Below are positions 893 through 64,000 of a DNA stretch of 64,000 bases, in pieces; position 1 is the first letter of the stretch; each line of letters starts with the position of its first letter. The DNA is from an uncultured Chitinophagaceae bacterium. Lineage in GTDB: Bacteria > Bacteroidota > Bacteroidia > Chitinophagales > Chitinophagaceae. Under the pieces are notes generated by a model. That model searched no databases. It was not told the DNA's origin and saw nothing but the letters and a program-made list of their open reading frames with translations. The DNA lies in NCBI GenBank assembly GCA_963790435.1, contig CAWBOI010000006.1, positions 97,758 to 161,757 on the forward strand. Direction: 5' to 3'. Position numbers and translations under genes: made by a program.

Positions 893-3869
893 ATGAAGTA
901 TTGTGTACTCATAATTAGCTGCTGCCTTTGTTGTTTGTTTTCTTTCGCTCAACCCGGAACTACGGTAGAGTTGAAGAAGCCAAAAAAGTATGAAGACCGC
1001 ACGCTGGCTTCTGAAAAAAGCGATCAAAAGAAGTTTGGTTTTGGCAAGCGTTTGTACCAGGACATGGTTACGCATTACAACTATTATTTCAATGCAAATA
1101 ATCATTTGAACGATATTGTTACAAATGCAAAAGCCGTGCATGCCGACGACTACGGCAAACTGCTTTCTTTTTACAATTACGATTTAAACACAACTGCGGC
1201 AAGCAGAGGTGAGATTGATTCGGTTATCTATCATTGCACGGCGGGCGTATTGCTTCACGACCTGCGAAATGATTGGATTGACGACTTGTATTTTATATTA
1301 GGCAAAGCTTATTATTACCGCAAAAATTTCGACTCTGCGCTGAATGCGTTTCAATTCATCAATTATGCCTGGGCGCCAAAGGATGAAGGCTACGACATTC
1401 CCATCGGTAGCAACGAAAGCGGAAATAACGGTGTATTTAGTGTTGCCAGCAAAGAGAAAACCGATGTGCTTCACAAAACAGTAATGACGCAGCCGGTGCG
1501 CAATGCCAATTTTTTATGGATGGCACGAACCAACATTGAAACGGGAAACGATAGTCGTGCAGCAGGCTTGTTGCAAGTTTTACAGCACGATCCGAACTTT
1601 CCGAAACGCTTGCAAAGTCGGGTTGAACGAGACGCTGGCTTATTTATATTACAATCAAAAAAGGTGGGACAGTGCTGCCTTTCATTTGAATGCGGCATTG
1701 GGCAATGCAACCAACCGCTTTGAAGCTGCCAGATGGGAATATTTGATTGCGCAGATGTATGCGTTAAGTGGTGATAAAAAAAGTGCTGCTGATTATTTTG
1801 AAAAGAGCGCCAACCACACTCCTGACCCTATTATGGAAGTGAATGCGTACTTAAGCTCCATTACCATTAACAATGACAGCACAGGAAATACTACACAGGA
1901 AAAGCTGAGCAGCCTTTTAAGAATGGCAAAGCGTGATAAGTATATTCAGTACAGAGATGTGATTTATTATGCGGCTGCCCAGGTGCAAATGCAATTGAAC
2001 GATACGGCTGCCGCAAAGCACATGCTGCGGCAAAGCATTAAAAGCAGCATGGGCAATGAGCAGCAAAAAAGCTTATCGTTTATGATGCTTGCCGATATTT
2101 CTTACGAAGGAAAAAAATGGGTGGAAGCGCATCGTTTTTACGATAGCACACGTGCCTCTTACATTACCGATTCGGCACAATTGGTTCGGTTCACTACAAG
2201 GCAGCCGGTGCTGTTTAAAATTGCCACTTATTTAATAAATGTTGACAAACAAGACAGCCTGCAAAAAGTAGCCCTGATGCCCGAAGCGCAACGCATGGCT
2301 TATTTGAAAAAAGCCTTGCGGCAAATACGCCGTGCGCAAGGTTTGAGCGAAGAATCGCTCAGCTATGGCAGTAACAATCTTAACCCTTCACAAGACTTGC
2401 AGGCACAGGCGCAACTCTTTCAAAATCCGTCTTCTTCAACCGATTGGTATTTCAATAACAGCAGTTTAAAAAGCAGTGGTGCAAATGAGTTCAAACAACG
2501 TTGGGGCAACCGACCGAATGTTGACAACTGGCGCAGGCAGTCGTCAGTTGATGCCGCTGTGCTTTCTCAGCAACAGATGAGTAATGATGTAGATGCAGTA
2601 GCAACGCCTAATGGAGTAAACGCCAATGGCAGCAAGCAAACCGGGCCCCCTCCGGTTCCGCAATCGGTGGAAGACTTGGAAGCTGGGTTACCGCTAACAC
2701 CCGCTAAAGTGGTTATCTCTAACAATACCATTGCCGAAAATTATTTTAAAAGTGGTGTGTTGTTTCAGGAAAGTTTACAGAATTATCCTGCGGCAATTGA
2801 GATGTATCAAAATATGAAACGGGCAGAAGACAGCAGCCAATATCGCGAGCCTTCTTTGTTGAATTTATACTACTGCTACACAAAGCTGAACGATAGGTTA
2901 CGCGCCGATTCTGTATTGGCTTTATTAGGGAAAGAATATCCCAACGGCAAGTCGTTGGCAGCTATGAAAAAAGGCAATAAAAAAATATCGGAGCGTAGCG
3001 AAAAGAACCCTGCAACGCGTGCTTACGATAGCATTTATAATGCTTTTATTGAAGGAAATTTTACGGAAGCCAAAAAACAAAAAGCCATTGCCGACAGCTT
3101 GTATGGCAACAGTTACTGGACGCCGCAACTTTTGTACATCGAATCTATCTACTATGTGTCGGAACACAACGACAGTGCGGCTTTGCGCGAGTTGCAAAAT
3201 ATTGAAATGCAGTTTACCAAATCGCCGTTAGCAGAGAAAGCGGCTACGATGATTGATGTTTTGCGGCGAAGAAAAGAAATCGAAAATTATCTTACCAAAC
3301 TGCAGGTTACCCGAAATGAAGACAGCGGCACTTCACCCATTATCAACTTAAATTCAACCGAAATAACGGCTAACAAACCAGTGCGTGTACACACCGATTC
3401 GATTGTTTCCAAACCACCTCCGGTTGCAAAAGCGCCGGTGATAAAAACCGATACAACAAGTGCCAAACCAACAGTTGCCAAAGCATTCAAATATAATCCT
3501 GCCGATCCGCAGTTTATTGTGTTGCTGTTAGATAAAGTTGCGCCGGTTTTTGCCAACGAAGCGAAGAATGCATTTAACCGTTACGACAAGCAAACATTTT
3601 ATAACATGCCGCAACTGAATGCGAACAATGTGAAGCTGGACGACCGTTATAACCTGGTGCTGATTGGTCCGTTTACAGATGCGGTGGGTGCATTGGATTA
3701 TATTGATAAAGTAAAACCCATCACTGCCGGAAAAATATTGCCGTGGCTAACGCCGGATAAATTTAGCTTCATTATGATTAGTAAGGCGAATTTAGATTTA
3801 TTGAACGAAAACAAGGATTTGGAAGGCTATAAAGCGATTCTAAAAAAAGCACTGCCCACAAAGTTTTGA
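893..3869 (+). CDS. sprE: SprE/PorW-like T9SS/gliding TPR protein, split by a +1 frameshift at about 1618-1619
   Basis: N-terminal signal, MVTHYNYYFNA motif, multiple TPR-like helices and a C-terminal SPOR-like region. ORFs 893-1723 and 1503-3869 join as ...RLQS/GLNETLAYLYY if one base is removed from caaagtcgggttg. Confidence 0.72.
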
Positions 3870-3872
3870 TAT

Positions 3873-3932
3873 GGTGAATAGTGAATGGTGAGTGTAAGGC
3901 GATTACTCACTTCTCACCATTCACTACTCACC
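3873..3932. repeat. Heptamer-based intergenic palindrome (REP-like)
   Basis: ggtgaatagtgaatggtgag ... ctcaccattcactactcacc, 19 of 20 positions complementary. Confidence 0.8.
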
Positions 3933-3990
3933 TCTTGGCTTGGAGTTTGTTTTTACAGGAATATTGTTTAACCTATAAAAACAAACGATT

Positions 3991-4209
3991 ATGCCTGGAA
4001 AAGAAACAGAAGGCTTTAGCACCAACGAGCCTGCAGCTAATAAAGCTTCCAAACAAAATTCTGAAAAGAATACATTGCCTAACGAAGATGTAGATCCGAA
4101 ATACGAACCGGAAGTTGAAAAAGCTTACCATAAAAATGTAGGGTCGAACAAAAGCGGAAATGATACGCGCCGCAATCACGACAGCAACACACGACAAGTA
4201 GGAAGCTGA
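3991..4209 (+). CDS. Small hydrophilic hypothetical protein (72 aa)
   Basis: ATG after an A-rich leader, highly charged/polar sequence, followed directly by a strong terminator. Confidence 0.65.
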   Translation: MPGKETEGFSTNEPAANKASKQNSEKNTLPNEDVDPKYEPEVEKAYHKNVGSNKSGNDTRRNHDSNTRQVGS

Positions 4210-4223
4210 TAATTTTTTAGGCA

Positions 4224-4266
4224 AAACCAAAAGGCTGATGAATATACTTCATCAGCCTTTTGGTTT
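4224..4266. terminator. Intrinsic terminator hairpin
   Basis: aaaccaaaaggctgatgaa-tatac-ttcatcagccttttggttt, perfect 19-bp stem. Confidence 0.85.
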
Positions 4267-4367
4267 CATTGCAATGATTGTTTATTGTTTATATTTGGTA
4301 TGAAAATTTTGCAGTTTTACTCATACAATCGAATTGTTTTTTAATTCATAAACCTTCCTGTTTTTTT

Positions 4368-5138
4368 ATGAAAAAACAAATTTCTTTTTTACTCATTTTC
4401 TCTTGCCTTGCGGCATTCCAAACAACCTATTCGCAAGGAATCAGCATTGGTGCAAAAGGTGGCATCAGCATACCCAATTTAAGTGCGCCGGGAAAGGATG
4501 CAACACCGTTGAACACGGGCTACAAATCGCGTCTCGGTCCCGATGCTGGCCTGTTTGCAGAGTTTCATTTGTCAGATGTTTTTTCAATAGAACCGATGTT
4601 GGAATATTCCTCACAAGGTGGTAAAAAAAATGGCGTACAAGCATTTCCTACGCCTTCGTTAGCGGCTGTTTATTTTCGGGCACGAAACCAAACGCCGCCT
4701 ACTTACTTGTACGGAAATTTCAATAACGAAGTAAAACTCTCCTATCTCATGCTTCCGGTGCTGGCAAAATTTGGAGTTCGGCTGGGTTATTCTCCGTTTC
4801 GCATTTATGCTGATGTGGGTCCGTTTGCTTCGCTGCTACTGGATGCAAAAGACAAAACAAGAGGAAATAGCCAGGTGTACTTAGACGCAAATGGAACGCA
4901 GCCATTACCGGTTGGTTCTTTCTCCTTTAACAGCGATTCAAGTGTTATCAATAGTTTGAACAAATTCAACGCAGGCGTGGAAGGTCATTTGGGTGTGTCT
5001 TTCACTATGAACAGAAGCACTGTGTTTGTGGAAGGTGGCGGCAATTATGGTTTTTTAAATATTGAAAAAGACAAAGCCGATGGCAAAAACAACACGGGTG
5101 CAGCCGTTATAATGGCTGGCTTCAGCTATCGGTTTTGA
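4368..5138 (+). CDS. Porin-family outer-membrane beta-barrel protein
   Basis: Signal peptide MKKQISFLLIFSCL, GISIGAKGG start, alternating beta-strands, terminal aromatic (FSYRF); start moved to ATG 4368. Confidence 0.8.
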   Translation: MKKQISFLLIFSCLAAFQTTYSQGISIGAKGGISIPNLSAPGKDATPLNTGYKSRLGPDAGLFAEFHLSDVFSIEPMLEYSSQGGKKNGVQAFPTPSLAAVYFRARNQTPPTYLYGNFNNEVKLSYLMLPVLAKFGVRLGYSPFRIYADVGPFASLLLDAKDKTRGNSQVYLDANGTQPLPVGSFSFNSDSSVINSLNKFNAGVEGHLGVSFTMNRSTVFVEGGGNYGFLNIEKDKADGKNNTGAAVIMAGFSYRF

Positions 5139-15700: not shown

Positions 15701-16358
15701 TTGGAAATGAAAGTATTTGCCGACAATGGTTATGGCGCATTGGAGAACATAAAAAATACGGATGGTTTAGAGCAATTGCCCATTATTATTTTTACTGGTA
15801 AAAGTCTTATCAAAAGGAGAAGAGGCACGCATTAAACAAGTGGCAGATTCCATCGTTGTAAAAACAGCCAATTCCTACAAACGAATTTTGGATGAGATAG
15901 ATGTATTTCTTCAGATTGTTGAAGAAAACGATCCTAACAAAACCAAAAAAACCACACGCCGGTTAAGCGCTTTGGAACCGGTATTGCAAAATAAAACAGT
16001 GCTGATTGCTGATGATGATGTACGCAACATTTACTCTCTTACCAAAGCCTTAGAAGCGCATAAAATGACTGTTATTTCGGCAACGGATGGTAAGGATGCG
16101 CTGGAACAATTAAAGCAAAACCCAAAAGTAAATTTGATTTTGATGGATATGATGATGCCCGAAATGGACGGCTACGAAGCCACACAAACCATCCGCAAAA
16201 TGCCGCAATACCGAAACCTTCCTATTCTTGCTGTTACGGCAAAAGCGATGTATGGCGACAGGGAAAAGTGCATCCAGGCAGGTGCTTCGGATTATATTTC
16301 AAAACCCATTGATGTTGATCAGTTGATTTCATTATTGCGTGTTTGGTTGTATCAATAA
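12781..16358 (+). CDS. CHASE3-HAMP-GAF-HisKA-HATPase-REC-REC-REC hybrid kinase with two +1 frameshifts (about 13030-13034 and about 15809)
   Basis: CHASE3 DAESGQRGYLLTG, H-box MSHELRTPL, GGTGLGL and three receiver domains. The three ORFs join as NAK/MKIFG and FTGKSL/SKGEEARIKQVADS. Confidence 0.85.
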
Positions 16359-16361
16359 ACA

Positions 16362-16458
16362 TTTGAACCACAAAGACTCAAAGTAAAAAAGTTGCACAAA
16401 GATTCTTATTTTATATCCTTCGTGAACCTTTATGTTCTCTGTGCCTTTGTGGTTCAAA
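16362..16458. repeat. REP-like inverted repeat element
   Basis: tttgaaccacaaag ... ctttgtggttcaaa, perfect 14-bp terminal arms around a degenerate cacaaag-type core. Confidence 0.75.
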
Positions 16459-16542
16459 GGTTTGTTTTTGCACCAATTTTCATTGCTTCAATCACAAATC
16501 ATAAATCTAAAATCATCAATCATAAATCAGTACCGCCGTTCC

Positions 16543-24306: not shown

Positions 24307-25203
24307 CTAAGCTTTTGGATGCGCCTGCTTGTACACTTCTTTTAATTTTTCGATGGTGAGATGCGTGTAAACCTGCGTTGAAGCCAAACTCGAATGACCT
24401 AATAATTCTTTTACGGAATTCAGCTCAGCACCGTTGTTCATCAGGTGCGTAGCAAATGTGTGTCGTAAAATGTGCGGGCTCCGCTTCTCAATACTTGTGG
24501 TTGCACCCAAATATTTTTTTACAAAATTATACACCATTTTGGGGTATAAAGGTTTGCCTTTGCTATTGGTAAAAACAACATCCGTGTGGTTGGCAACAGG
24601 CTTTTGTGCAATGTAATTTTTAATAGAACTAAGTAGTTCATTCGATACCGGAATGAGGCGTTCTTTGTTCCCTTTGCCCAGCACTTTTATTTGGCTGTAA
24701 CTCCAATCAATGTTGCTTTCTTTCAGGTTGATTAATTCGCTCAAACGTATTCCGGTTGAATAAAAAAGAAGCAAAACCAAACGTTGTGTTCGTCCATCAT
24801 GGTCATCAGGAAATTCGATGTTTTGAAACAGTTTCTGCATGTCTTTTTCATCAACAAACTGTGGCAACCGCTTACTGATTTTGGGCGAAACAATGCTCTG
24901 CATTGGCGATTGTACAATAACGCCCTGCTTCAGTAAGTATTTAAAAAAAGATTGTAAGGCAGAAATTTTGCGGTTGATGCTTTTGTTGGTTAAGCCTTCT
25001 TCACTTTTAATATTGGCAAGCCAGGAACGTACCAAAGGCGTTGTGATTTCGGCGGGCAAAGGAGCGTCAAATTCTCTTTCTAAGTAATCGAAAAACTGGA
25101 ACAAATCGGTGTTATATGAAGCCAATGTATAGCCTGAATACTTTTTTTCAAACTGAAGAAACTGCAAAAAACGTTGCGCTTCTGCATTGTGTGGTGTGGG
25201 CAT
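24307..25203 (-). CDS. xerC: XerC-like chromosomal tyrosine recombinase
   Basis: STGIRLSEL, GKGNKER, PHILRHTFATHL, LLGHSSLASTQVYTH; conserved rpsU-xerC-raiA context; start set at MPTPHN. Confidence 0.85.
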   Translation of the reverse strand: MPTPHNAEAQRFLQFLQFEKKYSGYTLASYNTDLFQFFDYLEREFDAPLPAEITTPLVRSWLANIKSEEGLTNKSINRKISALQSFFKYLLKQGVIVQSPMQSIVSPKISKRLPQFVDEKDMQKLFQNIEFPDDHDGRTQRLVLLLFYSTGIRLSELINLKESNIDWSYSQIKVLGKGNKERLIPVSNELLSSIKNYIAQKPVANHTDVVFTNSKGKPLYPKMVYNFVKKYLGATTSIEKRSPHILRHTFATHLMNNGAELNSVKELLGHSSLASTQVYTHLTIEKLKEVYKQAHPKA

Positions 25204-25239
25204 AAAAAATAGTCGTAAAGCTACTGCCTTACGACTATT
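25204..25239 (-). terminator. Hairpin after rpsU
   Basis: aatagtcgtaa...ttacgactatt followed on the minus strand by a T tract. Confidence 0.65.
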
Positions 25240-25261
25240 ATACAACGGCTATTCTAAAAAA

Positions 25262-49110: not shown

Positions 49111-49299
49111 ACTGTTCGTTTTTATTGAAGGATAAAATGCAAATCAGAATGCGATTACACAACAATGTTAGTGATAAACGATTGTCTTAACACATTATTT
49201 GCAGGAAATGGATTTTGCTGCTTTTGTTTTTGCCGATATTTTAGTTTGTTGCACAAATGATTTATCAATTTGATTGCTTATTTTCTTTTTATTTTGAGT

Positions 49300-50061
49300 A
49301 TGAAATGGTTTGCAGAAAAGGGTTCTATTGTTCGTAAAATCTGGGGTAGCGGCGATACCATCCTGTTTATTTTTGCAGGTTCGGCTGCTGAGTTTGCATT
49401 AAACAAAGCAGTTGACTGGCTCTACTTTACCGGCAGGCTTCCTGCCGATCCGTTAGGTCGTTTATTTTCAACGGTTACTTATGCACGACTGATTGTTTTT
49501 TCGGAAGAAGAAAAAGCGAATGCTGTGATTGATAAGATGGCGTTTATTCACGCAAAAGTAGAAGAGAACCGTGGTTCAAAAATACCCGATTGGGCTTACC
49601 GCGATGTGTTGTTTATGCTGATAGATTATTCCATTCGTGCATATGAAGTGTTGGTAAGAAAATTATCTTATGAAGAAAAAGGCGAAGTGTTCCTAACCTT
49701 CAACAAAGTGGGCTTGCGTATGGGTTTGAAAGATTTGCCCAACACATTTGCTGAATGGTTACTGGCGCGTGAACAACACTTAAATGAAGACACTGTTTAC
49801 AGCCAGTACACCGCAGATTTATTCCGCCAATATAAAAAACACCTTGGCGCCTTTCGCTATTTTTTATTAAGAGAAGGACAGAAGTTAGTCGTGCCAAAAA
49901 GAATAAACAAACTGCTTAGGTTGAGTAACGTTTCGCTGCTCATTCCGGTTGTTTTCGTTTACAAATTGTTTCGTGCTGTGAAGTTAGATTGGTTTTTAAA
50001 AAGCCTTATTTTACCTAACGAATACAAGAAGCAAATTAAAGAGTTAGACGTAGTTTCATAA
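49300..50061 (+). CDS. MpaB/DUF2236 oxygenase-like protein
   Basis: SIVRKIWG, FAGSAAEFALNKAVDWL, IHAKVE, YRDVLFMLIDY; start at ATG 49300. Confidence 0.75.
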   Translation: MKWFAEKGSIVRKIWGSGDTILFIFAGSAAEFALNKAVDWLYFTGRLPADPLGRLFSTVTYARLIVFSEEEKANAVIDKMAFIHAKVEENRGSKIPDWAYRDVLFMLIDYSIRAYEVLVRKLSYEEKGEVFLTFNKVGLRMGLKDLPNTFAEWLLAREQHLNEDTVYSQYTADLFRQYKKHLGAFRYFLLREGQKLVVPKRINKLLRLSNVSLLIPVVFVYKLFRAVKLDWFLKSLILPNEYKKQIKELDVVS

Positions 50062-56619: not shown

Positions 56620-57951
56620 ATGAATGCACCTCGCAAACCAAAACAACTGAAACCCTTACAACTCATTGCTGTTATTTTTCTTACCGTTTCCGGTGGTCCG
56701 TATGGATTAGAACCGTTGCTGGTGTATGCGAACCAACATGCGGCTTTGCTGCTATTATTGGTAACGCCTTTGTTGTGGGATGTACCTGCTATACTCACCG
56801 TGCTGGAATTAAATAGCATGATGCCTGTTGAAGGTGGTTATTATCAGTGGGTGAAACGTGGGCTGGGCTTGCGCTGGGCATTTTATGAAGGCTGGTGGAC
56901 GTGGTTGTACACCTTTGCCGATCTTGCCATTTATCCGGTGTTGTTTTCGGAATATATTCTTTACTTTTTTCCAGGTGCAGAAGCATACAAAATTCCAATC
57001 GGCTTGCTGGTCATCTGGAGCAGCGCATTGCTTAACATCATCGGCATTGTGCCGGTTGGCAAAGTAGCAACGGTGCTAAGCGGGATTGTAATTGTACCTT
57101 TTTTAATCTTGATTGGAACTGCCATAATCTCTTCACATTTTTCTTTTCATCTGCCCAAACCTTCGTTACACGGTATGAGCTTTTCAGCAGTTGGTATCTC
57201 TCTTTACGCCATCATCTGGAACTTTATTGGATGGGACAATGCGACTACTTATGCCGGTGAAGTAGAGAAGCCGGTGCGTTCTTATATCATTACCAACTTC
57301 GTTGTTTTTGCCCTTGTTTTGTGCATGTATTTGCTTACTGTTTTCACGGTGCAGCAACTACCAATAAAGCCTGAAGTGCTAGAGCAGCAAGGCTTTCCAG
57401 CGGCAGGTGAACTATTGGGCGGTTATTGGTTGGGCGCTTTGCTGTCGGTTGGTGGTTTGGCAAGTGCACTGGGTTTGTTTTCATCGGTTTTATTGTCGGT
57501 TTCGCGTGTGCCCAAAGTAATGGCAGATGATAAATTGCTTCCCAAACAACTCGATGCCATGCATCCAAAATTCGGAACGCCATACGTTTCCATTTTGATT
57601 TGCGCTGTTGTGGTAAGTCTGATGATGGTATGGTCGCTGGAAGAATTGTTTGTAATAGATGTGATGATTTATGGCGCAGGTTTGTTTGTTGAATTTGTTA
57701 CTTTAATTGCTCTGCGAAAGAAGGAACCCAATGCGCATCGCCCTTTTAAAATTCCGGTAAAAACAAACGGCTTGTACGTGATGCTTTTTATTCCTTTGGC
57801 AATTTATAGCATTGCAATTATGGGTTCTTTGTCGAAAGAAAACGCTGGTTTTGCCAGGCCGGTTTTATTTGCTGTTTGTGCTTTGCTTTCGGCAGAAATA
57901 GTTTGGCAAATCATACGTTTGCGGAAGAAAAACAAAAGGGTTGCACCATGA
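56620..57951 (+). CDS. APC family amino acid/polyamine permease
   Basis: VSGGPYGLE, EGGYYQWV, WNFIGWD, about 12 TMs. Confidence 0.88.
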   Translation: MNAPRKPKQLKPLQLIAVIFLTVSGGPYGLEPLLVYANQHAALLLLLVTPLLWDVPAILTVLELNSMMPVEGGYYQWVKRGLGLRWAFYEGWWTWLYTFADLAIYPVLFSEYILYFFPGAEAYKIPIGLLVIWSSALLNIIGIVPVGKVATVLSGIVIVPFLILIGTAIISSHFSFHLPKPSLHGMSFSAVGISLYAIIWNFIGWDNATTYAGEVEKPVRSYIITNFVVFALVLCMYLLTVFTVQQLPIKPEVLEQQGFPAAGELLGGYWLGALLSVGGLASALGLFSSVLLSVSRVPKVMADDKLLPKQLDAMHPKFGTPYVSILICAVVVSLMMVWSLEELFVIDVMIYGAGLFVEFVTLIALRKKEPNAHRPFKIPVKTNGLYVMLFIPLAIYSIAIMGSLSKENAGFARPVLFAVCALLSAEIVWQIIRLRKKNKRVAP

Positions 57952-59255
57952 CATTTTCAAAGCTATTGGCGCAAAGCCTTATCTGGCGTGGGTTCTACTT
58001 CATCACTTTGTTTGGTGTGAATGTGATGTTGTCCCGAACCTTACAAGCATCGGGCAGCGGCATTTTATTTTATTTCGTTAACACTTTTTTTATTGTGCAG
58101 TTGGTAGCAAGTGTATGTTTGGAAAACGGACTCACCTTTTTTTCTGCAAGTAGTAAAATTGCATCCTCAAAATTGTTTTGGCTTTGCATATTATGGACGG
58201 CCATTATTGTTGTTCTTCAACTCGTTGTTTTCTGTTTTGCAAATGGCGCTTTTATTGATAAAACCAAAGCCCTATATGCGTTTTGTTACATCACCGGCTC
58301 ACTGCTCATCACATACAGTTCAAACCTGTTTTATGCAGATAAAAACTTTGTTGTACCGAATGTAATTTTATCTCTCTTCAATTTGATGTTTGTTGTTTTT
58401 CTTTTGTTTCCAAATCAAATTTTTGGTGAGGAAAAGTTATCTCGTATTTCCACTTTTTATTTTGCCCTTTTTTTGCTGCAAGGCGTAAGCATTGCAGCCG
58501 CTTATCTGGTTCAAAACCAATGCTGGCGCGAGTTTGCACTACCTCATAAAAATGAGGTCAAACAATTTTTTCGTTATTCAATCACCGTTCTCCTCTTTAA
58601 TGTTCTTTTGTTTTTTGTATATCGTGTAGATTATTATTTTGTGAGATACAGTCCTGTTTGCACCACAGCCGATCTGGGCAATTATATACAAGCCTCAAAG
58701 CTGGGACAGATGTTGCTGGTGGTGCCGCAAATCATTGGCAGCGCAGTGTATCCGCAGGTGTCTTCGGGCAAAGAAATAAGAAGTGTAAGCCGCATTATTT
58801 TGTTGCTGATAAAGCTCATCGCAGTTTTATTCTTCGTTTTGTTTTGCCTTATTTTTTTCATTGGCAAATGGCTCTTTCCTTTTTTACTGGGCAATACATT
58901 TCAGCAAGTGCAAACTCCTTTTTTATTGCTGTTGCCAGGTATTTATAGTCTGGCAATTATATCTTTTGTTTCTAATTTTTTTTCAGGACAAGGCAATGTG
59001 AAAATCAGCGTGCGCGCGGCTTTCATCGCTTTGCTGGTTGTTGTGATTGGTGATTTTGTTTTTGTGCAAAAATGGGGAATCGTAGCGGCTGCTATGGTAA
59101 GCTCGGTAGGCTATTGCATAATGTTTACTCCTTATTGGTTCCATTTTAAAAGAACAGCTAATGTATCGTTCCGGGATTTTTTTAAATTGAACAGCGAAGA
59201 TATTTCGTTAGTGAAAGAAGTGTTTCGAAAAGAAAAAAGAGCATCAACCAAATAA
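57948..59255 (+). CDS. Polysaccharide flippase (Wzx/MOP family)
   Basis: About 12 TMs, YRVDYYFV and LGNYIQASKLGQ; ATG overlaps the APC stop codon (ATGA). Confidence 0.75.
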   Translation: MTFSKLLAQSLIWRGFYFITLFGVNVMLSRTLQASGSGILFYFVNTFFIVQLVASVCLENGLTFFSASSKIASSKLFWLCILWTAIIVVLQLVVFCFANGAFIDKTKALYAFCYITGSLLITYSSNLFYADKNFVVPNVILSLFNLMFVVFLLFPNQIFGEEKLSRISTFYFALFLLQGVSIAAAYLVQNQCWREFALPHKNEVKQFFRYSITVLLFNVLLFFVYRVDYYFVRYSPVCTTADLGNYIQASKLGQMLLVVPQIIGSAVYPQVSSGKEIRSVSRIILLLIKLIAVLFFVLFCLIFFIGKWLFPFLLGNTFQQVQTPFLLLLPGIYSLAIISFVSNFFSGQGNVKISVRAAFIALLVVVIGDFVFVQKWGIVAAAMVSSVGYCIMFTPYWFHFKRTANVSFRDFFKLNSEDISLVKEVFRKEKRASTK

Positions 59256-59315
59256 ACCAATGGCATTGCCATCATTTTTGTTTCAACCATAAATTCTTAT
59301 TCCACATGCTACCAT

Positions 59316-59714
59316 TCATAACGCATCTGCACCGGCTTCCGCAACTTTTTGATCCTGATTCACCAATCCGCCGCTCACGCCAACCGCACCAATAATGTTT
59401 TTCTGAGAATCTTTCAGCAACACACCACCGGGAAAAGAAATCAAGCCACCGTTGGATATTTCAATGCCATACAATGGCTCGCCCGGCTGGGAAAGCTTGC
59501 CTAAATCGCCGCTGTTCATATCAAAAAAGTTGGCGGTTTTCGCTTTTTTTATGGCAATGTCTATCGAGCCTAACCATGCTCCATCCATGCGTACAAAGGC
59601 AACCAAATTGCCACCTCTGTCAACTACTGCAATGTTCATTTGCACTTTACTATCTCTTGCTTTTTCTTTAGCAGCCGCTATTACTTTCTCAGCTTGTTCC
59701 AGTGTGAGGTTCAT
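59316..59714 (-). CDS. GlcG/HbpS heme-binding protein
   Basis: [39 protein letters not shown]. Confidence 0.9.
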
Positions 59715-59916
59715 AAAAAATGAATTTAAAATAAAGGTAAAACCAAAATAGTTCCGTTGTATTGATTTCTATTATCTGCGGTTTGAATGAAAGCAAACCG
59801 GCTCGTTGTTTTTGAAGCAAACATTTTTACTGCGTTCAATTCTTTTTGCAATCATCTTTGTTGTTTGCTTTACATTCTGCCATTCAAGAACATTCATTGA
59901 AATATTCAAACCGTTT

Positions 59917-61140
59917 ATGAACGAACATACATCCTTTACCAGCATGAGTTCTGTGGCTATTCATGCTGTGCAGGCATTGTCTGCTGAACACGCGCATTTG
60001 ACTCCCATCTTTGCCACTTCTACTTTTACTTTCGACAGTGCTGAGCAGGGCATGAACCGCTTTGCCGGAACTGAACAAGGTTATATATACTCCCGGTTTG
60101 GCAACCCAACCATCACCGCAGCAGAAGAAGTAATTGCCAGTTTGGAAGCGTTTCAAATCAACACCAAAAATGGTGAACCACTGCAATTAAAAGCCTTGCT
60201 ACATGCCAGTGGGCAATCGGCTATGGCAACGATGTTTCTCTCATTATTATCTGCAGGCGATACTGTGCTTTCTCACTATTCCTTATACGGTGGCACGCAT
60301 GAATTTTTGTTTCAGTTTCTACCAAAATACAATGTGGCTGCAGTGCTTGCCGATTTAAGAGATTTAGCTGTGGTAGAAGACATAATACGCCAAACACCAT
60401 CGTTGAAGGTGATTCATTTAGAAACACCGGCGAACCCGATGATGCAGTGCTTCGATATTGAAGCGATTTGCACAATAGCAAAAAGACATAATCTCCTTGT
60501 AACGGTTGACAACACGTTTGCAACACCTTACCTGCAACAACCTTTTAAATGGGGAGCCGATTTTGTTTTTCATTCAACCACCAAATTTCTCAATGGTCAT
60601 GGTACATCCATAGGTGGCGTGTTGGTTGGCAAAGACATTTCTTTTATGAAAACAAAAGCGTATAACACCTATAAGTTGTTGGGCGGAACCAGCAGTCCGT
60701 TTGATGCTTACCTGTTGCTGCAAGGCATGAAAACACTGGAAATAAGAATGGAAGCGCATTGCCGCAATGCAATGCGGGTAGCCCACTTTTTAGATGCACA
60801 TCCTGCGATTGCCAAAGTGAATTATACAGGTTTACCCAATCATCCTGATGCTGAAGTTGTACAAAAACAAATGCGGCTACCGGGTGCAGTGTTAAGTTTT
60901 GAATTAAAAGAAGGTTTTGAAGGCGGCAAACGTTTTATTGACCAACTTACGATGTGCGTGCGGGCAGTATCTCTTGGTACTGTTGATACTCTCATTTCTC
61001 ATCCGGCTTCCATGTCGCACTCCGGTATGAAATGCGAAGACCGTTATAAAGCAGGCATTACCGATGGATTAATACGCATGAGTGTGGGCATTGAAAATGT
61101 GAACGATATTTTGAATGATTTGAACAATGCATTGAAGTAA
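59917..61140 (+). CDS. PLP-dependent trans-sulfuration enzyme (methionine gamma-lyase/cystathionine lyase family)
   Basis: YSRFGNPT, SLYGGT, ETPANP, VDNTFATP, HSTTKFLNGH, SLGTVDTL; start at ATG 59917. Confidence 0.9.
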   Translation: MNEHTSFTSMSSVAIHAVQALSAEHAHLTPIFATSTFTFDSAEQGMNRFAGTEQGYIYSRFGNPTITAAEEVIASLEAFQINTKNGEPLQLKALLHASGQSAMATMFLSLLSAGDTVLSHYSLYGGTHEFLFQFLPKYNVAAVLADLRDLAVVEDIIRQTPSLKVIHLETPANPMMQCFDIEAICTIAKRHNLLVTVDNTFATPYLQQPFKWGADFVFHSTTKFLNGHGTSIGGVLVGKDISFMKTKAYNTYKLLGGTSSPFDAYLLLQGMKTLEIRMEAHCRNAMRVAHFLDAHPAIAKVNYTGLPNHPDAEVVQKQMRLPGAVLSFELKEGFEGGKRFIDQLTMCVRAVSLGTVDTLISHPASMSHSGMKCEDRYKAGITDGLIRMSVGIENVNDILNDLNNALK

Positions 61141-61390
61141 GTGTGTGATGAAGTCATTTTTGTTTTTGCCCATATTTATCTTTACTATCCACAGATACAA
61201 CGACCAAACAACAGTAATAAGGAAGGGGACAGTGAAAACGAAAACCTACTGCTTAACAAAGTTGTGAAAATACAAACCTACTAAAAGATAGACGCTCCCG
61301 ATGCAAAGTTTAAGTGATACAATTCGGCACTGCTCCATAAAGTTTTGCGTGTAGGGAAGCTCAGAAGGAGAGATTTGAAGTTTTTGAACC

Positions 61391-61585
61391 AACGGCGAAG
61401 GGCTTTGTGCAGGTGGGGAATTAGCATTCCGTATGCTCGTAACCGAAGTACAATTTATAGATAAATGTTCATTGTTTATTCTATTGCCGAATGTTGCTCG
61501 TCACGCTGGAACTGAAGCCGATGCCTGCACTTAGCTGAAGTAACAATGTCGTGCCCCACTTGCACAAAGCCCCATGTTGTAGGCA
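61391..61585 (-). mobile_element. attC-like long imperfect palindrome downstream of the cassette gene
   Basis: Minus strand: TGCCTAC-AAC-ATG-GGGCTTTGTGCAAGTGGGG ... CCCCACCTGCACAAAGCCC-TTCGCC-GTT; 19-bp arms (61400-61418 and 61554-61572) with one mismatch. Confidence 0.7.
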
Positions 61586-61597
61586 GGTCTATGTCTG

Positions 61598-61957
61598 TCA
61601 GCAACTCCAAAATCTTTTTCGTTTAAAGTCAATTTCAGATGGTCCGTCAGAACAGCCGCCAATTTCTTTTGCGTTCTTGTCCTTGATGCTGTGTCCAATA
61701 ATCCACTTGCCTGTCTTTGTGTGCTTCATTATAACTCCTTCGTCAAGAATGTCACCCTTTTTGCCCGTCAAGTTAGCCTTGCCATTATGAACAACTTTTA
61801 TACTGTCACCCTTGATAATTACTGTACAAGTTGCACCTAAAGATTTTCCGTTCCATTCTGCAAATGCAATAGAGTAGGTGTATATACCGTCCCTTGGCTT
61901 TTGTGCAAGTGTCAATGTACAAATAAAAAGTAAGCAGGCAGTTAGAAATATTTTCAT
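61598..61957 (-). CDS. Small secreted hypothetical protein (119 aa), putative cassette cargo
   Basis: Sec signal peptide MKIFLTACLLFICTLTLA-Q; stop codon 12 nt from the attC-like element. Confidence 0.8.
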   Translation of the reverse strand: MKIFLTACLLFICTLTLAQKPRDGIYTYSIAFAEWNGKSLGATCTVIIKGDSIKVVHNGKANLTGKKGDILDEGVIMKHTKTGKWIIGHSIKDKNAKEIGGCSDGPSEIDFKRKRFWSC

Positions 61958-62070
61958 TTGGTCTTGTATATATATCAATTGTCTGTGTCAACTAAGAAAA
62001 AGGTTGAGAGCAATTGGTAAGTTTCACCTGTCCTGCCATCAATTTAAAACTGTTAAAACCAATTGCCTAC

Positions 62071-62181
62071 AACTCAAATATATACGAAGGTTTTATTTTT
62101 TTCTAGAATTATCAGGAAAATATTTTTCTGTTGATTGTCATTCCTTTATCTCATTTTCCCGCATTTCGTATATTTATTGTT
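62071..62181 (-). mobile_element. Second, degenerate attC-like palindrome upstream of the cassette gene
   Basis: Minus strand: AAC-AAT-AAATATACGAA ... TTCGTATATATTT-GA-GTT-GTAGGCA; arms at 62076-62088 and 62165-62175 with a 2-nt bulge. Confidence 0.5.
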
Positions 62182-62246
62182 TTGATTCGTAAATACAACT
62201 TTCCATAAAATCATTTCTTCAAATTTGCACAAAACCAAACCGCAAC

Positions 62247-62285
62247 AAAAAAGTTCCGAACAATAGAGTCATTCGGAACTTTTTT
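62247..62285 (-). terminator. dnaJ terminator
   Basis: aaaaaagttccgaa ... ttcggaactttttt. Confidence 0.85.
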
Positions 62286-62302
62286 TATTCGATTCTTACA
62301 AT

Positions 62303-63451
62303 TTAAGTAAACACTTCCTTCACCCTTTCAAAAAAGCTCTTTTCGCTTTTGCCCGGCTGCGGTTTAAAATTGGGGCTGTTGTTTAGTTTCTCCAACATGG
62401 TTTTTTCTTCCGAGGTCAGGTTTTGCGGCGTCCATACATTCACATGAATCAACTGGTCGCCACGCTGATAACCCTGCACTTCAGGGAAGCCTTTGCCTTT
62501 CAGCCGGAATATCTTTCCGCTCTGCGTTCCGGGCGGTATTTTTATTTTAGCGCGACCATCAATCGTAGGTACTTCTGTGTTGGTTCCAAAAGTGGCTTCC
62601 GGAAAAGTAATGTGGAGTTCGTAGGCTACATTTAAGCCATCACGGTGCAATTCTTTGTGCGCTTCTTCTTCAATCAGAATCAACAAATCGCCAGGCGCAC
62701 CGCCACGTTCACCGGCATTGCCTTTTCCGCTCATGCTCAGCTGCATGCCTTCCTGCACACCGGCGGGAATGTCAATGCTGATGGTTTCTTCGTTGTACAC
62801 CCTGCCTTCACCTTTGCAATTGTTGCATTTTGCCGTAACCGTTGAGCCTTCGCCGTTGCAGGTAGGGCAGGTGCTTACGGTTTGCATTTGCCCTAAAAAT
62901 GTATTCGACACTTTCCTTACCTGGCCACTGCCATGACAGGTAGAACAGGTTTGAATGCTGCTGTTGTCTTTGGCTCCGCTGCCGTTACAAACATTGCAAG
63001 GCACATATTTTTTTACCTTGATGTTTTTGGTAACTCCCTTCGCCATCTCTTCATAGTTCAGCTTTATTTTTACGCGAAGATTGCTGCCGCGCGAACCTCG
63101 GCCACGGCTGGCTCTGCCACCGCCGAACATACTGCCAAACATGCCTTCGCCAAAGATGTCGCCAAACTGACTGAAGATGTCTTCCATGTTCATGCCGCCA
63201 CCAAAGCCGCCACCACCCATACCAGGCGCAAACGCCTGGTGACCAAAGCGGTCGTACTTTGCTTTTTTGTCTCCATCGCTCAACACTTCGTAAGCTTCGG
63301 CAGCTTCTTTGAATTTTTCTTCGGCGCTTTTATCACCCGGGTTTCTGTCGGGATGATATTGCATCGCCACCTTGCGATACGCTTTTTTAATTTCATCGCC
63401 GGAAGCCGATTTGCTCACGCCCAGAACTTCGTAATAATCTCGTTTTGTCAT
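62303..63451 (-). CDS. dnaJ: Chaperone DnaJ
   Basis: J domain with HPD, G/F-rich region, four CxxCxGxG repeats. Confidence 0.98.
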
Positions 63452-63452
63452 G

Positions 63453-63605
63453 CCCTAATCCGCCTAAGGCGGAAAGTTTTAAAATGTACGCCCCAGCTCC
63501 TAAAGGGGAGCCAGAAAGCTTTGATTAAATTTATTGTCTTTTTAATTAAACAGTTTTTAAAACACTTACGTTGTCCCCAACTTCCACTTTAGGCGGACCA
63601 GGGCC
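63453..63605. repeat. Degenerate REP-like units between grpE and dnaJ
   Basis: tccgcc-taa-ggcgga palindrome, ctcctaaaggggag and ctttaggcgga related units. Confidence 0.5.
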
Positions 63606-63616
63606 TTGTCTTCTCC

Positions 63617-64000
63617 TTACTTCCCAACCACCACTTTTGCAAAGCGGATAAGTTTATCGTTTAACGAATATCCTTTTTGCACTTCGTCCAGCACTTTTCC
63701 TACCTGATCTTTTGTAGGTGAAGGAATTTCAGCAATGGCTTCATGCTTCTCAACATCAAAGTCCTGCTGCTTGCTTTCCATCCCTTTCAAACCCTTTGCT
63801 GATAAGGCGTTGCGCAGTTTGTTAAATATTAAAAGAATGCCTTCTTTTATTTGCTCAACATCATTGCTTTGTTTCATTTGCTTTTCTGCACGGTCGCAAT
63901 CATCCAACACATCCAGCAGCGAAACGATAATGTCTTTACCTGCTGTTTGAATCAGTTCCATCCGCTCTTTTGCATTGCGGCGTTTGTAGTTTTCAAACTC
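63617..64000 (-). CDS. grpE: Nucleotide exchange factor GrpE, 5'-truncated by the window edge
   Basis: EFENYKRR, FDVEKHEAI, QKGYSLNDKLIRFAKVVV; upstream of dnaJ. Confidence 0.95.
   Translation of the reverse strand, partial: EFENYKRRNAKERMELIQTAGKDIIVSLLDVLDDCDRAEKQMKQSNDVEQIKEGILLIFNKLRNALSAKGLKGMESKQQDFDVEKHEAIAEIPSPTKDQVGKVLDEVQKGYSLNDKLIRFAKVVVGK

Follow-up and report, generated by a model that had tools for sequence, protein, structure and literature searches.

Integrons and their gene cassettes are best known from Proteobacteria. They have been listed for Bacteroidota (PMC8618304), and the IntegronFinder 2.0 survey recorded Bacteroidetes with only isolated integrases and one complete integron (PMC9024848). 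Solo cassettes, in which a single attC is found without an integrase (SALIN), and genomic attG sites with the sequence 5'-GWT-3' were described by Loot et al. (bioRxiv 10.1101/2022.09.11.507474). The stretch analysed here, 64,000 nucleotides of contig CAWBOI010000006.1 from an uncultured Chitinophagaceae bacterium (hereafter the window), carries on its minus strand a solo unit of 680 bases adjoining dnaJ. This unit, located at 61393-62072, is very probably an integron-type gene cassette integrated downstream of dnaJ, in a region that encodes no integron integrase. It agrees with the class, already described, of single attC sites that lack an integrase and lie at a genomic G|TT: one attC is present in the 64 kb, no integrase or other att site lies nearby, and the target would read GAG|TTGG. 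The evidence comes from the boundaries of the unit, from the pairing of its ends, from arrays of homologues and from its replacement between strains.

The 5' end of the unit, GTTGTAGGCA (62073-62064, minus strand), and the R'' box behind its gene, TGCCTACAAC, are complementary at 10/10 positions. The same pair is present in two related loci, L087 and L154, where the R'' box is identical and stands at the same distance from the stop codon. In L013 the pair at the same positions (-116/+22) is GTTGGTTGCA/TGCAACCAAC, again complementary at 10/10 positions and with three compensatory changes, while in L019 the 9-mers GTTGGCTGC/GCAGCCAAC pair at 9/9 positions. Two unrelated cassettes of L154 keep the same rule with GTTAGGCGC/GCGCCTAAC and GTTATGTGCA/TGCACATAAC. 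Such complementarity between the 5' end of an integrated cassette and the R'' of its own attC, which the initial annotation had pointed out for the window, is expected when a circular cassette opens between the G and TT of its own R' (PMC5027507). The AAC and GTT triplets, with the crossover placed between G and TT, are also present, and G|TT closes the attC-like site at 61393|61392-61391.

Homologous copies of the unit lie in five other contexts (L003/L004, L007, L087, L154 and the more distant L013). According to BLAST and to the alignment, their similarity starts at the G of GTTG, the preceding bases being unrelated, and stops directly after ...CAAC, beyond which the flanks are unrelated again; the two 10-mers thus mark the exact limits of the conserved block. 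In the alignment of six copies conservation begins with position 62073, and G62073 itself is contributed by the resident site and not by the cassette. A 10-nt inverted pair alone is at chance level, 20 inverted pairs of at least 9 nt being found within 1.4 kb, which would suit the view that an ordinary lineage-specific gene lies beside an unrelated palindromic repeat, of the kind of miniature inverted-repeat transposable elements (MITE) or repetitive extragenic palindromes (REP), and that the pair is a coincidence. However, the 5' end and R'' co-vary, and the pair becomes significant because one copy stands at an independently defined homology boundary and the other abuts the palindrome.

Replacement of the unit as a whole was observed in sequencing run X1. 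A contig of 7631 nt (depth 11.8) matches 57400-61394 and 62070-64000 of the window, the two differing by 55 bases and 4 small indels over approximately 5.9 kb, corresponding to a strain about 99% identical, and in this contig 61395-62069 is replaced by 1171 different bases. Both break points recur in run X3. The alternative cassette begins with G|TTGGCTGTAA, or G|TTGGCTGTAATTAG..., and ends with ...AATGCTTTAAC G|TT (...TTTAAC G|TT). The breaks (61394 and 62070) lie 2-3 nt inside the predicted crossovers because both cassettes share a few bases at each end, and they are consistent with G|TT crossovers. From its start, GTTGGCTGTAA, the R'' of the alternative cassette is predicted to be about TTACAGCCAAC, the complement of that start, and the cassette is predicted to contain one or two open reading frames (ORFs). 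Exact look-ups of the 119-aa protein, the HbpS-like protein and DnaJ yielded no contig with the alternative cassette; a last one gave a contig that stops 24 nt beyond MetC. The window allele is represented in the same run by a 196-nt contig of lower depth identical to the part 61630-61825 of the cassette gene, and in run X2 by one contig over the 5' junction (62035-62185) and another over the attC and the gene end (61451-61601). Two cassettes, each with its own attC, thus alternate at one site in otherwise near-identical strains. An empty allele was not seen in runs X1-X6; the empty target is inferred to read ...TATATTTGAG|TTGGTTC (GAG|TTGG), that is, ...TATATTTGAG|TTGGTTCAAAAAC....

The same polymorphism bears on the possibility of phase variation by inversion, in which an invertase would act on the 10-bp inverted repeats (62073-62064 and 61585-61576) and flip the gene relative to an outside promoter at TATATTTG. 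The perfect repeats do bracket exactly the conserved block, a promoter-like box is located just outside it, and in the phage-like locus L180, described below, the ORF has the opposite orientation relative to the attC. However, the difference between strains does not stop at 61576 but continues through the palindrome to 61394, no invertase is encoded nearby, the inverted form is present in no contig, and the array context accounts for the repeats without inversion. Inversion is accordingly a most improbable explanation of the locus.

The closest relatives by MetC, L181 and L184, which belong to the same 90% cluster, have the gene order of the window (SDH, permease, polysaccharide-synthesis protein, HbpS-like protein and MetC, followed by DnaJ and GrpE on the other strand). 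Their MetC-DnaJ spacer comprises 283-284 nt and contains no cassette. Comparison of this interval, suggested earlier as a way to find the empty site, proves that both relatives lack the cassette but gives no clean empty site, since their spacer does not align with 61173-62207. Ilyomonas limi (L182) and L183, considered as further relatives for comparison, do not share the gene order here. Another close relative, L185 (6228-7529), has in its MetC-DnaJ spacer an HTH_3 regulator and a 131-aa ORF instead of a cassette. The ORF has no Pfam match, and its hydrophobic stretches suggest a membrane protein. The MetC-DnaJ spacer is therefore a variable spot, a hotspot for more than one kind of insertion.

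Several homologues are members of cassette arrays. The 1804-nt metagenome contig L154 carries at least four consecutive cassettes parted by hairpin sites, one of which has the canonical boxes GCCTAAC/GTTAGGC. The site following its fourth cassette, TGCACATAAC ATG GGGTTTTGTGCC...GCCACAAAGCCC TAATCC G|TT, has both the layout and the arm sequence of the window site, and the layout AAC-AT(G/C)-GGG(Y)TTTGTGC is common to the window, this cassette and L180. Three attC-like sites are present in L087. Its site B, GGTTTGCAGCAAGTGGGG...CCCCACCTGCTGCAAGCC GTAAAAC G|TTGTAGGCA, is 76% identical over 76 BLAST columns to 61401-61475 of the window, which comprises part of the loop and part of the L' arm, and it keeps the A.C mismatch of the stem while showing a compensatory arm change from TGC/GCA to CAGC/GCTG. 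In the isolate Chryseolinea sp. T2 (L034), three AAC...GTT hairpins of 76-85 nt precede the gene, each with a single A.C mismatch. The same single mismatch recurs in the second cassette of L154 and in L180. Array membership is thus a property of the homologues L154, L087 and L034, not of the window itself.

The same attC family occurs in a viral contig of IMG/VR (IMGVR_UViG_3300042691_019112; L180:1625-2352), which is phage-like and has a ThyX gene nearby. Next to this attC stands a unit framed by GTTAGGCG and CGCCTAAC, with an ORF for an Rv2179c-like 3'-5' exoribonuclease antisense to the attC top strand. The attC copy has the canonical boxes GCCTAAC/GTTAGGC, and the unit resembles a solo cassette carried by a phage genome. 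Because canonical boxes are found both in an array neighbour and in this phage copy, the separate non-canonical cassette system envisaged in the initial annotation is not needed.

Diverged copies of the window attC were also found in runs X1, X2, X4, X5 and X7, in different contexts. Together with those of L087, L154 and L180 they make the palindrome a dispersed family, as would be expected of a MITE- or REP-like repeat, and other palindromes stand behind the same gene elsewhere. However, every copy stands between ...AAC and GTT... boxes, and the flanks of the arms (..GGCGAA / CAT..) contain no target-site duplication. In addition, gene and palindrome were replaced together in X1, and the context of the gene differs in nearly every genome. 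The association of an ordinary gene with an independent repeat is therefore regarded as very unlikely. The approximately 680-bp cassette bounded by G|TT at the 3' end of dnaJ, as originally proposed, is upheld by the conserved boundaries, the covariation, the arrays, the strain replacement and the absence from the closest relatives; the sequence features on which that proposal was built are all read in the sequence at their positions, except that the leader, given as about 105 nt, measures 115 nt. The coordinates of the features are collected in Table 1.

Table 1. Coordinates of the cassette, its attC-like site and the adjoining features (window positions unless a locus is named)
Feature	Position	Strand	Basis or remark
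Integrated cassette as a whole, from TTGTAGGCA... to the G of the hybrid R' box	61393..62072	minus	strain replacement and homology boundary
5' junction G|TTGTAGGCA, cassette-borne half of the R' box	62064..62073	minus	exact reverse complement of 61585-61576
Conserved 5' leader, junction to start codon	61958..62063	minus	115 nt if counted from 62072
Cassette gene, 119-aa secreted all-beta protein with three conserved Cys	61598..61957	minus	homologues and AlphaFold (AF2) model
R'' box TGCCTACAAC (inverse core), ending in the AAC triplet (61578-61576)	61576..61585	minus	begins 12 nt past the stop codon
5' unpaired spacer ATG	61575-61573	minus	
L'' arm GGGCTTTGTGCAAGTGGGG	61572-61554	minus	inverted-repeat listing
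Variable terminal structure, attC loop of 135 nt	61419..61553	minus	
L' arm CCCCACCTGCACAAAGCCC	61418-61400	minus	
3' spacer TTCGCC	61399-61394	minus	
Hybrid R' G|TTGGTT	61393-61387	minus	crossover between 61393 and 61392
TATATTTG, match to the Bacteroidota -7 promoter box	62075..62082	minus	1 nt upstream of the junction, resident flank
dnaJ terminator hairpin, resident flank, outside the cassette	62238..62294	minus	inverted repeat; conserved in L181
TATATTTGG/TATATTCGG with GCTGAC, loop motifs	L154:100-125, 860-880, 1470-1490; L087:1395-1410, 1725-1745; window 61455-61475		

The attC-like site has a total length of 195 nt and the layout of an attC, with a 10-bp R box, a spacer of 3/6 nt, a 19-bp L stem and a 135-nt loop. 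The 19-nt L arms are complementary at 18/19 positions, the one mismatch being A.C on the gene strand and G.T on the other. The arm pattern is unique in the window (chance expectation 0.03 matches). A hairpin scan of the 64 kb gave one site scoring 18, this one, and each shuffled sequence gave 0-4 matches at a threshold of 11. The R' 7-mer is GTTGTAG in the circle form and GTTGGTT in the integrated form. A second, AT-rich attC upstream of the junction was considered and rejected, as 62060-62200 has no significant fold (z -0.24). Two other hairpins of the window have an AAC/GTT frame. One is an intergenic palindrome (16352-16472) with the 16-bp arms TTTGAACCACAAAGAC and GCCTTTGTGGTTCAAA and a loop of about 75 nt, which is unrelated in sequence to the cassette attC. 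The other (49464-49658), with 11/12 arm positions paired, is located within the ORF 49270-50061 and is probably a chance match of the scan.

A transcript of the palindrome from the plus strand would run convergent with the cassette gene, and it could act as a structured non-coding RNA or as a large terminator. All 19 positions of the arms pair in plus-strand RNA (one as G-U), which folds better than shuffled sequences (z -3.6), and contigs of run X7, which is labelled 'RNA?', cover diverged copies. However, X7 may consist of DNA or of read-through transcripts, and it holds only diverged attC copies, not the gene. The loop is poorly conserved between copies, and a search of 58000-64000 with Rfam cmscan at E up to 1 returned only two chance snoRNA matches elsewhere, with Flavo-1, to which the palindrome had originally been likened, absent. 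An RNA function would also leave the AAC/GTT frame, the covariation with the cassette 5' end and the co-replacement with the gene unexplained, so that it is highly unlikely to be what the palindrome represents.

In the mechanism proposed for the cassette, a tyrosine recombinase would have inserted a free circle at a chromosomal G|TT downstream of dnaJ, with the crossover between the G and the TT. The attC of the circle would close by pairing of R'' TGCCTACAAC with R' GTTGTAGGCA, followed by a short unpaired spacer, the 19-bp L stem and the 135-nt terminal loop, and presumably folds as single-stranded DNA. The reaction would have been carried out by an integron integrase encoded elsewhere, either in this genome or in a past donor, and the attC-like site may still be active.

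The window contains a single tyrosine recombinase gene (24307-25245, minus strand). Its product is of the XerC/XerD type, with 302/265 bits for the XerC/XerD models, and was rejected as an integron integrase since it reaches only 115 bits with the integron-integrase (IntI) model, whose cutoff is 265; the initial annotation, which recognised only a housekeeping XerC, is correct on this point. In L087 an IS91-family transposase and, paired with it, a tyrosine recombinase of 308 aa are encoded beside the cassette array (2571-4639), and a recombinase 49% identical to the latter is encoded in L005 (216-1430), about 2.5 kb from the gene. Apart from these, no recombinase was located within 4 kb of the gene in the related loci.

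Several observations weigh against an integron-type cassette. An integron integrase is encoded neither in the 64-kb window nor, as judged by tblastn, within 4 kb of the gene in 59 related loci. The recombinase of the L087 array is IS91-associated and, with 156 bits against the cutoff of 265, also fails the IntI model; as both recombinases do so, dependence on an integron integrase is deduced from the anatomy only. The 7-mers CTACAAC/GTTGTAG depart, as had been noted before, from the extended attC consensus RYYYAAC/GTTRRRY (PMC5027507). The stem has no bulged extrahelical bases, only the one mismatch, and with DNA parameters there is no energetic strand bias (-32.1 and -35.6 kcal/mol for the two strands). 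At 195 nt the site is longer than the 57-141 nt cited in the initial annotation as classical. Finally, L181 and L184 provide no clean empty site, homology being lost over 61173-62207, and unrelated attC bodies stand behind the same gene and R'', which the textbook mechanism does not predict.

In the textbook reaction, crossover at R' keeps the attC body with its gene. Behind the same gene, leader and R'', however, the attC body comprises 195 nt in the window, about 65 nt in L087 and about 130 nt in L154, and yet another body is found in L013, all of them unrelated. Fast structural drift or exchange at R'' is possible. Since the conserved unit ends exactly at the AAC of R'' and the bodies behind it are unrelated, exchange of attC bodies at R'', for example by rare top-strand crossovers, is a tentative suggestion. 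If true, such exchange would bear on how cassettes come by their attC sites, a question still unsolved. In the Chitinophagaceae metagenome-assembled genome (MAG) L013, a direct repeat of about 90 nt, including a terminator-like hairpin, flanks the cassette region (3706-3815 and 4522-4635), and the cassette insertion there may have been accompanied by a target duplication.

The -7 promoter box of Bacteroidota has the consensus TAnnTTTG. A match to it, TATATTTG, is kept in the resident flank of both alleles, that of the window and that of X1, and similar CGTATATTT motifs occur 3-5 nt before the junction in L013 and L180. Judged from its sequence, the box may drive transcription of the cassette. 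In the loops of several attC sites, GCTGAC is preceded by TATATTTGG or TATATTCGG; these motifs resemble the -7 box and are aimed at the next cassette, and putative promoters within the attC itself are suggested by them. Across the 5' junction, the 33 nt at 62062-62094 form a core that is found again, with 3 mismatches, on another contig of runs X1 and X5, where the sequence to either side is unrelated.

The recurrence of this core and of the CGTATATTT-like motifs favours the view that the locus is the remnant of a degraded integron, in which the AT-rich 135 nt at 62074-62207 would be a former platform of attI and cassette promoter (Pc) whose integrase was lost, and thus a dedicated docking site rather than a random attG. 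The lack of a counterpart to 61173-62207 in L181 and L184, and the two different cassettes at the same junction of near-identical strains, also agree with it. However, no integrase pseudogene is present, tblastn of the window finding only XerC, and 62060-62200 has neither a significant fold nor any similarity to other loci beyond short motifs. Moreover, about 61173-61250 is common to L185, where it accompanies unrelated genes, and the spacer may simply be a variable hotspot. A degraded integron is therefore unlikely, if less so than the other alternatives to a solo cassette. Equally tentative is the proposal that the junction downstream of dnaJ is a minimal docking platform without integrase, consisting of the promoter box and G|TT with a recurring left-flank motif, at which single cassettes would be captured and swapped in trans, time and again, in Bacteroidota, and attC bodies could be exchanged at R''. 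The left-flank motif may recur at other solo junctions, including one in a phage.

The product of the cassette gene has a hydrophobic, signal-peptide-like N-terminus; in the alignment a signal peptide is evident and three cysteines are conserved. It matches no family of Pfam or NCBIfam. The AlphaFold (AF2) model is confident, with a predicted local distance difference test score (pLDDT) of 85, and all-beta, and it gave no significant fold match in the PDB. Homologues in Bacteroidota number 377 at E <= 0.001; the closest 120 are 68-88% identical, and the named ones come mostly from Chitinophagaceae MAGs and isolates. A scan of one genome per species recovered the gene at just 55 loci, spread among Chitinophagales, Cytophagales and Flavobacteriales, and nearly each genome has a different neighbourhood around it. 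With its strong conservation, its patchy distribution and its changing neighbours, it looks like a traded gene. The leader is 73-85% identical in L003, L007, L087 and L154; a conserved RNA fold was looked for in it and not found. A metagenome scan with an 18-nt leader pattern gave 120 matches, only L087 and L154 being real relatives and the rest chance, and collections of annotated plasmids and phages contained no match.

These data indicate that real cassette arrays, with a family of long attC sites of their own, exist in Chitinophagaceae and Cytophagales, and that single cassettes settle outside integrons, beside housekeeping genes and in a phage contig. Turnover of the solo site between strains about 99% identical gives support from a natural population to the genomic (attG/SALIN) spread of cassettes, so far mainly experimental in E. 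coli, and the locus offers a concrete allele pair for testing excision and insertion. The cassette gene itself encodes a widely traded, highly conserved secreted protein without known fold relatives. Less ordinary for this class are the Bacteroidota host, the long attC, the differing attC bodies behind the same gene, and the occurrence of the same attC family in a phage contig.

Among known systems, the cassette clusters L154, L087 and L034 resemble the locus in having the same gene or the same attC family, but the window has just one strong site in the hairpin scan. The classical attC sites attC-aadA7 and the Vibrio VCRs (Vibrio cholerae repeats; Nivina et al. 2016, PMC5027507) have the same parts as the window site: AAC/GTT closes the R box, the central spacer is unpaired, and an L stem is followed by a variable terminal structure. 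Classical cassettes likewise derive their 5' end from their own R' and, as do the homologues here, stand in arrays of co-oriented small ORFs. The window site differs from them in its 7-mers, in a single A.C mismatch in place of bulged extrahelical bases, in its length of 195 nt with a 135-nt loop, in the asymmetric spacer (3 versus 6 nt), and in showing no energetic strand bias with DNA parameters. Closest are the SALIN cassettes and attG sites. As in these, a single cassette with a single attC has neither an integrase nor another att site in its vicinity, the inferred target 5'-G|TT-3' matches the GWT consensus, and the cassette is located just downstream of a promoter-like box and is replaceable or excisable at its insertion point. 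Unlike the described cases, the host is a member of the Chitinophagaceae, turnover is evident from natural strain polymorphism and not from a conjugation assay, and the left-flank motif recurs, which may mean a preferred docking site.

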